DNA from: Escherichia coli
GTDB lineage: Bacteria; Pseudomonadota; Gammaproteobacteria; Enterobacterales; Enterobacteriaceae
Length of the DNA: 64,000 nt
Strand: one strand, 5' to 3'
NCBI RefSeq assembly: GCF_041248615.1
Contig: NZ_CP158425.1
In this document: one piece after another, positions 1 through 6,000 of the stretch
Numbering within the stretch: position 1 is the first letter of the stretch
Layout of the letters: every line of letters starts with the position of its first letter
Position numbers: made by a program

Positions 1-3000
1 AAAGTGCTTAGCGTTGAACTCGCCCATTACCGGGGTCAGGGGGCTCTTACAACCTGGGCAGGTGTAAGTATGTGAGCGCAGGGCAGCGCCAATGTGCGTG
101 AGGGTGCCCTCGTCGTCTAGCGCGTAAGCGTATTGTATTGAGCTGGATTGAGTTGTCATGACTGCGTAGCCTCCCAAAAAAATCCAGCTAAGAACAGACC
201 TTACGACAGGGAAATGGTAAGTAGTGCTTCTTGAAGCAGTCGAGTGTACAGCGGCTCAGTGAAAAAGCTAATCGCCCGCTCAACAACCTAGTGATACTGG
301 TGCAGATTCGACAATGAGTTAATGCCCGGAGAGCATCTGCAAGACTTCTAGCTGGAAGGCATTCCAACCAGCCCTCGCTTCTGAAAAGCCGTCAGGAAAC
401 GGTAAAATCCAACCAAGTGAGCAACTTCACTTGATCAAAGATCTAAGGCTAGAATGATGGAATTACAACCTTAGTTTGCAAATAGCCAATTTTTCAAACT
501 TTGCTTACTTTGTCAAGGAAGGTGACCGCAGTAGCAGGCACAACTACTTTAATCTGTATGAATAATAAGGTAGAACCGGCCAGTGAATGAATGCTTACCC
601 TGAAATCAGGCGGACAACCTTCAGGAATATTGATAGCAAGACTGAATCTCTCGCTGCGGCGATAAACATTTCGCCATAACCCTGAACGAGAGTGGTTCAT
701 CCATCATATACAGGAGCGTTACATGCGCAAATTTAAGTACATAATCTGTCACCAGTCCTGACCAAGGTCCTTTCGCCCGGGATGTTAGGTTGAATTGCTA
801 CGGGCGATGTGTTGTCACCGGCGTAAGGTCCCCCTGGCGTACTGAGGCCGCGCACTTAACGCCACGTCATGAAGAAGGCATTCCCGACGTAACGAACGGA
901 ATTTTACTTCGCCGTGATATCCATACACTGTTCGACAATGACCATTGCGCCATAAACCCTGACACTATGAAAATTTACTTCAGCCGGGAGGCCCGGGAGT
1001 TGGATGATGATCTCCTGAAATGGCATGGGAATGAGATAGAGACGACACGCATGCAGGTTCCGGTTAACATCGAAAACCTTCGGATACGATGGCAAAAATT
1101 TAAGGCTAAGGATCGTCAGCGTAAATAAAGCCATAAGCTGAACCACGGCGAGGATTAGTCTTGTTCACTAAATGACAGCGAGAGATTAAATGCAAACCCA
1201 AAAAGAAATTACAGTTGGCCAGATCTGGGAAGAAGTGGATCCAAGACTGATCCGGAAAGTGCGGGTTGTTGAGGTGGCCTCGTTAGAAGGGCCCAAAGGC
1301 ATCCTTATCGAAAACGTGGAGTCTGGTCGTAAGAACTGGGCGTCGTCATCCCGCTTTAATGGAAAGCGTGGAGGGTATCGTCTTATTTCCTGACGGTTTT
1401 GCCAATATGGGAAACTGAAGAGGTTGAAACCATCCCGGTGAGGGAGCATATCTGGTAAAGAAGAGTCTTTAAAAAGGTTTTACGCGACCTGGGATAATAA
1501 ACGGGAAAACGATACCCAAAAAAAGAATACAGCGATGATAACGATAAGGAATGGTAAGGGCTTCAATATTTTGAGAAATGCCCTGGCTTCCTTTGCATCT
1601 GCATTTCTAATCAAACTGTCCACATAGGGATCACAGCTCTTAGGTTCTGAATTTTTCATATGTTCTGTACCTGAAATTGATTCCGTATGAGAAAAGGCCA
1701 CCGAAGTGGCCTCTATCAAAACTGGTGGCAAAAGTTAGATCAGGAAATCATCAAGACTTTTACCGGCTGCAATTTGTTCTGCCAGAGCTTTGGGGGTACG
1801 GCCCTGTCCAGTCCACGTTTTTGTTTCGCCATTTTCATCAGTAAATGAGTATTTGGCCGGGCGTGGTCCACGGCTTTTCTTGGTAGCCGTAGATTTGGCC
1901 TGGAATGAGCCAAGCAGCTCTTCCGGGTTGATACCATCTTCTTCCATTAACTTACGCAGGGCGTCAAGTTTCTCCTGACGAGCTTGCAGTTCGGCAGCTT
2001 TGGATGATTCTTCCTGACGACGCTCATCAACAATGACATTAAGCTTTTCGAGGATTTCCTCAAGTACTTCTAAAGGCAGCTCGCGGCCCTGGGCGCGAAG
2101 AGTACGAATATTGTTTAACGATTTGAGTGCTTCAGACATACGACCCCACTTTCTAATTCTTTGATAAGGATTTACTTAATCATAATACACTCTATAAGGA
2201 AAAAGATGCCAGCTTTATGTCTTCAGGTACAAAGATATCTTGCTAAGAATACTCCTTATCTTCCTTGTGCAGACTGTTTCGTGCTTTCGATGTTGTTCAT
2301 GAGTCTTAAAATCTGCTCACTGTTTAGGGTACTCATGCTGTAAATCAGCAAGAAGGAAGCGCAGAACAACATAAGCAATCGGAAAAGGAAACCATGCCAG
2401 TGACAGGCCATATATAGCGGAGATAAACATAGGGTAATTTAACTCACTTACAAAATTCGCTTCATTGTATTGTTGAATCGAAATGGCAGAAGCAAAAATT
2501 ATAATTAAAGTAAGAAAAATCCACTCTAGCCATCTCTTTTTATAACAAGCATAAGCGAAAGCTGTAGGGTAAAAAATAAAGCAAAAAAATTCCAGCTGCA
2601 ATTACGTTCATAAAAGTAACTTTCCTGATAGCGCCGTTATTTTTCGAATGCAGTATCATGAACAACTGCCATAACATTGATGATTGGCTTTCTTTTTCTG
2701 AAGAACCTTCCGCGCGGCAAAGTTTCTCCCGCTTTGAGACGATAAAGCCAGAAAACATAAGCCGGAGGAACATTGCTGTCAAAAATATCTGAACAAGTTT
2801 GAACTGTGATGCCTACTGTATTGTCTTTCCTCATCTCTTTAAAAGTGCCTTGCAATGCAGCGGATAACGTCATTTTTAAGAAACCTTTTTTCTGTTTGAA
2901 CGGATAGACTTGACTTAGCTGGCTTGACTGTAATGTTTGCCACTAAAGATCCCTCGTTCTGAGGATGCAGGCACTACAAAGTTACCGTCAGGTCTAATCA

Positions 3001-6000
3001 TACGAGTTTGGATGAAATTTTTGCCGGATTTGGTTTTTTCAACCTGGTGCTCGATCTTCCATTCTTCTTTGACGGGACCGGATGACAAATGAACTAGAAC
3101 CGGTACTTTTTTACGTGTTCTATCCAGAACAATACAATTTGATTTATCCGTATCAAAGCTTCCCTGAAGAGTATTCAAAGAGCAATTATCATATCCCTCA
3201 ACCGGAACTGCATTACCTTGGATATCAATTTTGAATCCTCCAGCTATTACAATTTCGGGTGCGTTATCATTTAAAGTCTCGTCATAGGCAGCATCAACTA
3301 CATCGCAAGCAGTAAGAGTAAGTGACGATGCCACAGCAAGACACAATAAAGAAAATCTGTTTTTGAACATATTTGAGACCTTTTATAAAAATAAAATAAC
3401 AGGAGAATTGTATCATTAACAGTCTAGTTCTAACGACTACCACTTTTAAGTATGTATTGAGCCAGTTTTATATTCAGGCACACCATATTGCACTCTAGCT
3501 CTTTCATCATTCTTGAAGAACTCTTAATTAAGTATTCTTCAAGTGGGCCAGCATATGCCCCTGATGTCACGATCGTTAGTTGCGTAAGAGGATGAGTCAA
3601 ACTCTCAATGCCCTTCAGGATGTCATTCTGGACAGCAGCAATATAAACAGGCGAAGCCGCAATCAAATATTCATCATTCGGGCTGGACTGCATTAACTGG
3701 CTTATAGTTGCGCAACGGTTATGCTTACCTAGTGATTTTGTGATGGCTTTCCACCAGAGATCATGCCTGAATGGTACTTGATGAAATGTCGCCTCGTAAG
3801 AGGGCACCCGATCTCGACTATTTAAAAACCCCATCCCGGCAGAGATTATCCACAACTCCAGATTTCTGGTTGAGTTTAAAATTTCCTTTGCCGTAGACCA
3901 GTGATTACCTGAATACAAGGACAATGCCGGTACCGCCTGATTACTTCTGGCGTCGTCTACAATGTTACTCCAGGCATATGCTGCGTCGTCCGGGGTTTGT
4001 TTTGGATCTATGTCCAATGTCGGCCAGACGTGGCCCTGATGATTCTTGCCCTTTGTACAGGAAGTGATTAAGTGTACTGAGCGTTCAGAGAACATTATCT
4101 TCCTTACATACCCATAGAACAGCTTTCTAAGAACGGTGGGCTCGCCTGAAAATTACAAATCAGCCCCTTTCACGGCATCATTTTGATTCTTCGCGTCTGC
4201 CCCCAGTAAGATGACCGGTTTTCTGCATGACAGTGTTATTCCTAACAAACGCAACACAAAACCACGCCAGCCAGAGCAAATTTTTTCATTTGCTGCGTAA
4301 AGCCTATTGTTTTCTCTTTTAAGCTTCGCCCACTCGTTACAGAGGGTAACATCATCAAGCGCTGTTATATGCTTCGCCTCACCTTCGACGATAACGGTAT
4401 GGATACCGTATGCTGTAAATCTCATACTATTTTCCAGAACCCAGTTGCGGTATTCGTCGAGTCCACCTTCGGAACCGGTAGCTCTGCGCCACATTTCAAT
4501 TTGCTTGTGTGATGGGTCAAGTGTACTTGTCATTGAAGCCTCGTCTCAGCGATAACGCTTGAAATAGCCCGCTTTGGTCATCATGAAATTAGCCATCTGA
4601 CTGGCGATTTGATTGTATCTTACTCATAGTGCCCTACCTATAGGTTAAAAAGGGGCATTTTCGCTTTATAGCGTGTTCAGCAGCATCAATCCTCCCAAGA
4701 AAGGCTGGCTTATTAAGCCGGTCCATCATTTTCTGTATATCTCTCATCAATTTTTATATCCGCCCTGGAGTGCACCGTTCAAGCACACCGATTAGGCAGA
4801 TAGTCACTAGTTAACTCTTTACTAGTGACTAAATTCCATTGATATACGTGACAACGTCACGTCATGAAAGCTTTTAAATGCCTATTTTTCATACAATGGG
4901 ATTTAATTAGGAGTAAATCCCATAGGCTTACATAAGGATGACAATTAAAAGCGTTAAATATCAACCAGATAGAATGATTACCCCCAATTAATGGGCTCAT
5001 CACATTATTTCACTGGCTGGGGTTATTGCTGGCATATCTGAAAGTGCTAATATGTTAGTCATTAGTAATTAGTAAAGCCTTTACTAAACGCGTTTCTACG
5101 TAAATTCTATAGGTTTTATAGGGTCCTACCTTTGCTCAAATCAAAATGTTCTGACATACCAAAATGGAGTGTAAAATGACTCAAAACCAGGGTTCTGAGC
5201 CAGTACCGGCGAGCCGGACAGGGCAGCTCATCAGCGCCCGGGATATGGCCATGCAGAAATTCGAAGAAGGGATGCGGTTAATCTCGGAAGCGTCGGAACT
5301 GTGCGGTCTCTCTCTCTTCACCAGCAGAATTATGCAGCCCAACGCATTTGGTCTTCCGTCGTCACTGGATCGCACCATCGAGGAGGGGCGTAAGGAAATT
5401 GACCGTAAAACGTGGAAAAGGCTCTTTGAAGAAACAGGTATGGACCGGTACTGGAACCATAAGCAAAAAGAAGCCTTTAACGAATCCCTTCGTACGGATC
5501 CGCCCGTCGCTTCCCTGGAGATTGTTAAGGGAACATTACAGCATGCACTGGCTAACAGACGAGACACCCTTGCAGAAGGTTTCGTTGATGTTCTCAACAA
5601 GCTTGACCGAAGTTTCAAAAGCAATGCCAGGCAATATACAATGCCAAAAAAGCTTGTTCTTCGGGGGATTTTTCCTGGTGTGAACGTGCTGAGGTACAAC
5701 GGTTTCTCGCAGGACAATCACTTTTGTTTACGCGACTTTGAGAATATTGTATGCATCTGTTCTGATACTCCAACACCTGCAACCGGCGGTGGGCTGAGTA
5801 TGGTCGACAGGCTGACGGCCATGAGAAATACAGAATTCACAGGCGAGGTCAGTGATGAGAATGGCTGGCGGTGTCGCCTGTTTGAGAATGGAAACGTTCA
5901 TATTTGCATCGACAGTATCTCGCTTCTGAATGCTCTGAACGATCTTATCAGCATATATTTTGCAAACCAGCTTCCGGCCGCAGGAAAAAAATGATGATTG

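Follow-up and report, generated by a model that had tools for sequence, protein, structure and literature searches.

The present study concerns the hns neighborhood of an Escherichia coli plasmid, as found in a 64,000-nucleotide (nt) stretch of contig NZ_CP158425.1 (assembly GCF_041248615.1). This whole stretch is called the window throughout, and the plasmid loci compared with it are labeled L003 to L020. The hns gene of the window (1735..2139, minus strand) is best read, by comparison across plasmids, as an autonomous, monocistronic unit. Its operon link to the genes upstream is weak, since a terminator and a conserved promoter region belong to hns alone. For the neighborhood as a whole, we consider it probable that an autonomous plasmid hns stands beside separate accessory genes that are not of the Hha type.

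An earlier note on this DNA described a lipoprotein gene, two small open reading frames (ORFs) of 78 and 94 amino acids (aa), and hns as a minus-strand run with short gaps that ends with hns. The four ORFs, their strand, and their coordinates hold. The gaps from the lipoprotein gene through the 78-aa and 94-aa ORFs to hns measure 41, 35, and 177 nt, respectively, and the last of these is not short. That hns closes the run is doubtful, as a conserved co-oriented ORF of 59 aa (1480-1659) lies 3′ of it. The run also goes on upstream of the lipoprotein gene, with further minus-strand genes at 3430-4095 and 4153-4533.

The plasmid backbone and its H-NS protein

The region is the hns neighborhood of the IncHI2 plasmid backbone. 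Many conjugative IncHI2A plasmids from E. coli and Salmonella match the window DNA at 100% identity, e.g., NZ_CP022165.1, an identical record with replicon type IncHI2A and relaxase type MOBH. A second lineage, mostly from Enterobacter, has 99.4% DNA identity to the window (locus L004); we call it R478-like, a name that we assume to apply.

The hns product is a 134-aa plasmid H-NS paralog, which its Pfam matches and its 80.6% identity to the H-NS of an IncHI1 plasmid would place in the IncH (HppH/Sfh-like) clade. The N-terminal dimerization/oligomerization domain (Histone_HNS_N, PF22470; E = 2.5e-26) spans residues 1 to 78, matching profile positions 1 to 78 of 79. The C-terminal DNA-binding domain (Histone_HNS, PF00816; E = 3.6e-16) spans residues 95 to 134, and the DNA-binding loop TWTGQGRTP is intact at residues 108 to 116. 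The protein aligns end to end with the NCBIfam equivalog models of H-NS and StpA, scoring 183 and 171 bits. Both scores lie under the curated cut-offs (202 and 211 bits, respectively); thus, the plasmid protein is not an equivalog of either. The ratio of nonsynonymous to synonymous substitution rates (dN/dS) for hns is 0.06 to 0.15.

Fitzgerald et al. (PMC7544231) have assigned the H-NS proteins of IncH plasmids to a plasmid-only clade, HppH, of which Sfh is the sole characterized member. The clade shares the H-NS dimerization residues R12, R15, L26, L30, and L33, and Cys21 is absent from it. In the window translation, these five residues are present, and residue 21 is Leu, not Cys. Since the protein fits all the residue criteria of that study, we file the predicted product as a full-length HppH-type plasmid H-NS. 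The description in the earlier note, a plasmid-backbone H-NS of a kind with a known stealth function, agrees with the IncHI2A plasmid and with the identity to the IncHI1 protein.

Two changes at the hns locus are derived in the window lineage relative to all the relatives examined. One replaces Glu by Gly at residue 91, just before the DNA-binding domain (E91G, base 1868). The other alters the Shine-Dalgarno (SD) sequence of hns, which reads GGGG in the window and GAGG in all relatives (base 2146).

Expression signals of hns

Upstream of hns lies a 177-bp spacer (2140..2316, minus strand) with a putative core promoter, identified by its conservation across plasmids. Its AT-rich character, which had been pointed out earlier, is confirmed by a GC content of 35.6%, as compared to 50.3% for the whole window. 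The putative promoter has a -35 element CTGGCA (2212..2207), a 19-nt spacer, and a TG plus -10 element TATTAT (2189..2182), and the SD sequence follows at approximately 2149..2144. We aligned the hns upstream regions of nine plasmids. The promoter-proximal ~135 nt are kept in the four other IncHI2-like loci of this alignment as well as in the IncF plasmid pDSMZ16690 (L003). The core promoter motif reads GCTGGCAT-N-GAGTGTATTAT, and its GCTGGC...GAGTGTA(T/A)TAT core is recognizable in IncHI1, too. The block persists in L008, where ~500 extra bp and an opposite-strand ORF stand between hns and the upstream genes, and in pDSMZ16690, where the upstream ORF is decayed and the flanks are unrelated. 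The core persists in IncHI1 although the upstream gene there is unrelated. A promoter block that is conserved where the upstream context differs (L008, L003, and L005) is not what a single operon including hns would show.

At its other end, hns is followed by an intrinsic terminator (1685..1714, minus strand), a GC-rich hairpin GAGGCCAC-UUCG-GUGGCCUU with a U-tract behind it, just past the stop codon. The predicted fold has a free energy of -23.7 kcal/mol (z = -2.9). This hairpin was missed by a consensus terminator scan and was confirmed by RNA folding. It is kept in all the IncHI2-like relatives (L004, L012, L009, and L008), and IncHI1 has an analogous hairpin. RNA sequencing of an IncHI2 mcr-1 plasmid (PMC13183382) has placed h-ns among the 12 plasmid genes with the highest expression; the same list names no identified hns neighbor, the position of one entry, orf82, being undetermined. 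The window shows no enrichment of TCGATAAATT, the motif of high-affinity H-NS sites (69 matches, 64 expected), and the hns promoter contains no good match to it.

Several points weigh against an autonomous hns with a stealth role. The earlier proposal of a promoter upstream of hns is supported by the conserved block, but not by a strict sigma-70 consensus scan, which found no promoter in the spacer; the -35 element is poor, and the miss is explained by the promoter spacer of 19 nt. No terminator-like fold was found between the small membrane-protein ORF next to hns and hns itself, and read-through could thus add to hns transcription. That small gene, which is 97 aa long when intact, adjoins hns in every IncHI2-like locus seen and has moved with it into an IncF plasmid; therefore, a functional link remains conceivable. 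Finally, the stealth function has been shown by experiment only for Sfh of IncHI1, and we found no IncHI2-specific H-NS study in the literature.

The small ORFs between the lipoprotein gene and hns

The 94-aa ORF (2317-2601) begins with TTG and is not preceded by an SD sequence. Comparison with the R478-like lineage reveals it as part of a frameshifted allele of a gene for a 97-aa membrane protein with three transmembrane (TM) segments (2317..2611, minus strand). The gene is intact in that lineage, with 97 codons and an ATG start (MNVIAAGIFCF). In the window, the A-run at 2583-2589 is longer by one base, so that the coding strand reads T7 in place of T6 at codons 9 to 10. As a result, the conserved SD sequence AGGAAAG (2626..2620) and ATG (2611) now open a frame of only 23 codons, and the long ORF begins at a TTG that no SD sequence precedes. 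The allele is common: T7 is present in 303 of the 719 PLSDB plasmids that have the segment, while the other 416 differ, nearly all sampled rows being one base shorter. Annotation is inconsistent as well. Among identical RefSeq records, some list the TTG ORF and some do not, and the Prokaryotic Genome Annotation Pipeline (PGAP) leaves 2140-2636 blank in many records of the window lineage. Judged from its sequence, the 97-aa gene of the window lineage is inactivated, or leaky at best, and the 94-aa ORF in the window is probably a pseudogene.

Intact orthologs of the 97-aa protein (89 to 97 aa) are 65 to 94% identical. The ratio of nonsynonymous to synonymous proportions (pN/pS) is 0.22 to 0.38 (Fisher p 1e-5 to 1e-7). 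The significantly low pN/pS and the intact orthologs together indicate that the ancestral gene is real. Its product has three hydrophobic TM-like segments and a grand average of hydropathy of 0.70; the gene has a GC content of 33 to 39%. The protein has no match in PHROG, PADLOC, Pfam, or NCBIfam.

The other small ORF (2637..2873, minus strand) was taken from the ORF list and the frames of its orthologs, and it encodes a basic orphan protein of 78 aa with an isoelectric point (pI) of 9.8. Orthologs at 83 to 88% identity keep the frame, and pN/pS of 0.32 to 0.41 (p 0.01 to 0.02) points to modest purifying selection. No match to the protein was found in Pfam, NCBIfam, PHROG, PADLOC, or PDB sequences, including a sequence-profile search of the PDB. 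When 1.84 billion representatives were searched exhaustively by phmmer, only two distant relatives came up, at 36 to 43% identity, which share with the protein the motif W..RLK.GE.LPRG.FF. A third match (P0033) was rejected as a spurious repeat protein. One relative lies on a 296-kb contig of phage- or megaplasmid-like appearance; the context of the relatives (loci L019 and L020) is uninformative. The AlphaFold2 model, mixed helix and strand, has low confidence (predicted local distance difference test, pLDDT, 51).

Thus, both the 78-aa and the 97-aa ORFs are, by the pattern of their divergence, real genes: divergent relatives conserve them, and purifying selection acts on them there. The earlier worry that the small ORFs might not be conserved can be set aside, as the frames are kept at 65 to 94% identity with pN/pS significantly below 1. 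It could nevertheless be argued that neither ORF is a gene and that the ~740 bp from hns up to the lipoprotein gene serve hns as a long AT-rich regulatory region. The blank left by PGAP, the TTG start of the 94-aa ORF with no SD sequence, the 36% GC of the region, and the want of a database family for either ORF would all fit. The idea is partly true in that the 94-aa ORF here is probably a pseudogene. However, frames and lengths kept over such divergence, the low pN/pS, the perfectly conserved SD sequence and ATG of the 97-aa gene, and the occurrence of relatives of the 78-aa protein on unrelated mobile-element contigs go against it, and among the readings that we weighed it has the smallest chance.

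The question of Hha-like co-factors

The earlier note had asked whether the small ORFs could encode co-factors of H-NS, and it had named the Hha/YdgT family for comparison. Our results do not support this idea. Neither ORF gave a match to Pfam HHA or to NCBIfam at E<=1. We compared the two families by hhalign with a profile of aligned Hha, YdgT, and IncHI2 Hha sequences; the 78-aa family reached a probability of 0.2%, and the 97-aa family one of 0.04%. No Hha-like sequence is detectable by tblastn in the window. Homology of the small ORFs to Hha/YdgT was therefore rejected, since none of the four approaches (Pfam, NCBIfam, tblastn, and hhalign) supported it. Furthermore, the 97-aa protein, with its TM-like segments, is not the small, soluble, all-helical protein that Hha is. 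A 70-aa gene annotated as Hha/YmoA family does exist on a plasmid of the same lineage (NZ_CP022165.1, 59937-60149), ~42 kb from hns; its product is 46 to 51% identical to the YdgT and Hha sequences used for comparison.

Besides, both small genes are dispensable, judging from their distribution. The 97-aa gene is frameshifted in the window lineage and has decayed in an IncF plasmid that keeps hns, and a deletion has taken almost the whole 78-aa gene from L009, where the lipoprotein gene, the 97-aa gene, and hns remain. Such conservation combined with repeated loss is unexpected of obligate H-NS partners.

These observations bear directly on the proposal that the lipoprotein gene, the small ORFs, and hns form one operon in which the 78-aa and/or the 94/97-aa products act as Hha-like modulators of H-NS. 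Co-orientation with no predicted terminator in between, the purifying selection on both small genes, the small and basic nature of the 78-aa protein with its conserved RLKxGExLPRGxFF, and the constant place of the 97-aa gene beside hns in IncHI2-like loci would accord with it. Set against these are the absence of any sequence or profile similarity to Hha/YdgT while a canonical Hha/YmoA is encoded elsewhere on a same-lineage plasmid, and the integral membrane nature of the 97-aa protein, whose gene carries the frameshift in the 303 T7 plasmids and, in the IncF plasmid that keeps hns, has decayed. The loss of the 78-aa gene in L009, which retains hns, and the unrelated gene that IncHI1 has upstream of hns point the same way, as do the promoter block and terminator that hns keeps for itself. 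Hence, we hold the proposal to be very unlikely.

Transfer of hns between plasmid families

The IncFIB/IncFII plasmid pDSMZ16690 of Enterobacter roggenkampii (L003, NZ_CP017185.1, 5001-5906) carries hns with ~500 bp of upstream DNA at ~80% identity to the window. The homology ends at about window position 2650 on one side and just past the hns stop on the other, with unrelated flanks beyond. In this plasmid, the 97-aa ORF starts with ATA, and several indels break its frame. The arrangement suggests that a small hns cassette has moved between plasmid families.

One may ask whether hns works together with the 97-aa gene as a two-gene module, in which, for example, a costly or toxic membrane protein is silenced by H-NS and switched by slippage between T6 and T7. 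The two genes are neighbors in all IncHI2-like loci and moved together, leaving the 78-aa gene behind, into the IncF plasmid, and the very low GC content of the 97-aa gene befits an H-NS target. The frameshift lies in a homopolymer below a perfectly conserved SD sequence and ATG, and a +1 slip at T7 would restore the exact wild-type sequence. However, common descent explains the adjacency in IncHI2-like loci, and the ORF is decayed in the sole independent transfer. T7 appears fixed and identical in the 303 records and the other sampled rows are of the T6 type, which marks a split of lineages and not switching. The 97-aa protein is unlike known toxin, holin, and defense families, and a run of 7 nt is a weak slippage site. 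We therefore regard such a module as very improbable. A wider version would take hns and the 97-aa gene as a mobile module, with T6/T7 as a slippage-dependent throttle on a silenced, potentially costly envelope protein, and, as a separate matter, the 78-aa protein as founder of a new family of small nucleic-acid-binding modulators in plasmids and large phages; the odds are heavily against this reading, too, more so than against the Hha-like proposal. An autonomous hns with separate accessory genes remains the explanation that we prefer.

Genes upstream of the small ORFs

The earlier call of a lipoprotein holds for the 151-aa ORF (2915..3370, minus strand), as seen from its lipobox and alignment. 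Its signal peptide, MFKNRFSLLCLAVASSLTLTAC22-D, has an N-terminal hydrophobic segment, the lipobox LTAC22, and Asp at +2. The lipobox Cys is present in all full-length homologs (variants LTAC, LSSC, and LPAC), and two further Cys residues are invariant. In E. coli, Asp at +2 is the classical inner-membrane retention signal, and the 151-aa protein is predicted to be an inner-membrane lipoprotein. The gene has dN/dS of 0.09 to 0.44, and the family is confined to IncHI2-like plasmids. The AlphaFold2 model is all-beta with low confidence (pLDDT 52), and a Foldseek search with it against the PDB gave nothing at E<=0.001.

Upstream of the lipoprotein gene, at a distance of 59 nt, is a DUF6884/DpdC-like gene of 221 aa (3430..4095, minus strand), assigned by Pfam (DUF6884, E=5e-7) and by the PADLOC DpdC model (PDLC02818, E=4e-59). 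Its IncHI1 homolog is 58% identical and also lies upstream of hns. The first gene of the co-oriented run encodes a hypothetical protein of 126 aa (4153..4533, minus strand; ORF list and PGAP annotation), is conserved in L012 and L008, and has dN/dS of 0.21 to 0.50. Since the gaps among the 126-aa, DpdC-like, lipoprotein, 78-aa, and 97-aa genes are short (25 to 59 nt), with no predicted terminators, the arrangement suggests that these five genes are co-transcribed.

No relevant Rfam match was found in positions 1-6000. A sub-threshold match to Hammerhead_HH9 in the region of a DUF4942 gene (5189-5253, minus strand; score 22 bits, gathering score 52, E=0.056) is most likely due to chance.

The downstream side and IS26 truncation

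About 25 nt past the hns terminator is the 59-aa ORF (1480..1659, minus strand), with a C-terminal hydrophobic segment and uncertain gene status. L012, L009, and L008 preserve the reading frame, and the R478-like L004 has a nonsense codon in it. The evidence for selection is equivocal (pN/pS 0.36 to 0.92, p 0.009 to 0.51), and PGAP gives the ORF no annotation in NZ_CP022165. The nonsense mutation in the R478-like lineage is reciprocal to the frameshift of the 97-aa gene in the window lineage. Further on, a plus-strand HNH-endonuclease ORF (790-1128) has 112 aa and a TTG start, as compared to 202 to 285 aa in L004, L012, L008, and L013, and looks 5′-truncated in the window lineage. Next to hns, several HNH genes form a cluster in IncHI1 as well as in IncHI2.

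Some IncHI2 plasmids carry an IS26 insertion behind hns codon 40 (2019/2020), as in locus L013 (NZ_CP101234.1, 5036-6087). The insertion removes the hns promoter, the N-terminal dimerization site, and the upstream small genes. PLSDB has 858 plasmids with the 3′ part of hns and 738 with the 5′ part and the promoter; it follows that ~120 plasmids (14%) carry an IS26-truncated hns.

Discussion

In the explanation that we prefer, the plasmid H-NS would oligomerize through its N-terminal domain and bind AT-rich DNA through the TWTGQGRTP loop, as expected of the HppH clade. It could then keep AT-rich plasmid genes silent and add to the host pool of H-NS, so that a large plasmid (>200 kb) bearing AT-rich DNA would not titrate the chromosomal H-NS, the effect termed stealth. 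The high h-ns expression in the RNA sequencing of an IncHI2 plasmid (PMC13183382) lends such a role indirect support. The gene would be transcribed mainly as its own unit from the promoter in the spacer, with a 5′ untranslated region of ~35 nt, and transcription would end at the intrinsic terminator. Negative autoregulation is probable, by action of H-NS-family proteins on the upstream DNA of 36% GC. The five upstream genes are lineage-restricted and probably make up an accessory operon of their own.

Among plasmids that carry mcr-1 and other multidrug-resistance genes, those of type IncHI2 are of major importance; the H-NS homolog that they encode probably lowers the cost of carriage. The practical use of our results lies chiefly in exclusion and in annotation. 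The small ORFs near hns should not be treated as Hha-like partners, and the 94-aa ORF is a frameshifted allele that RefSeq annotates inconsistently. The plasmids with an IS26-truncated hns, roughly one in seven, offer a natural set for the stealth question in the field. The minor new points of our study are the frameshift allele of the 97-aa gene, the reciprocal nonsense mutation in the 59-aa ORF, and the IS26 truncation of hns; the current understanding of plasmid H-NS proteins is unchanged.

Comparison with known systems

The Hha/YmoA/YdgT proteins are resembled by the 78-aa ORF in small size and position near hns only. The 7-deazaguanine DNA-modification system Dpd is represented by the match of the 221-aa protein to the DpdC model. 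No gene annotated as DpdA, DpdB, or tgt-like appears in the full PGAP annotation of NZ_CP022165.1, in what was an annotation check and not a profile search, and the 221-aa protein appears to be a solitary DpdC homolog.

The chromosomal H-NS and StpA of Enterobacteriaceae align with the window H-NS over the full length and share the intact TWTGQGRTP loop. The AT-rich DNA upstream of the window gene would fit autoregulation, as for the chromosomal genes. Unlike them, the window protein is plasmid-borne, scores below both NCBIfam cut-offs, and has Leu at residue 21, as in the clades other than H-NS.

The closest known system is the Sfh/R27 H-NS of the IncHI1 plasmids pSf-R27 and R27, an HppH protein that is likewise encoded by IncH plasmids. 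The window H-NS resembles it in architecture, in the length of 134 aa, in the dimerization residues, and in the absence of Cys21. Local synteny is shared on both sides: in IncHI1 and in the window, a DUF6884 gene lies upstream of hns and opposite-strand HNH-endonuclease genes lie downstream, and the core promoter motif of hns is kept in both. Between DUF6884 and hns, the window has the lipoprotein, 78-aa, and 97-aa genes, whereas IncHI1 has one unrelated gene of 90 aa. E91G and the GAGG-to-GGGG change of the SD sequence, derived in the window lineage, also set the window gene apart from Sfh/R27 H-NS. In kind, the feature is already known: it is an ordinary H-NS gene of a plasmid, equipped with expression signals of its own.

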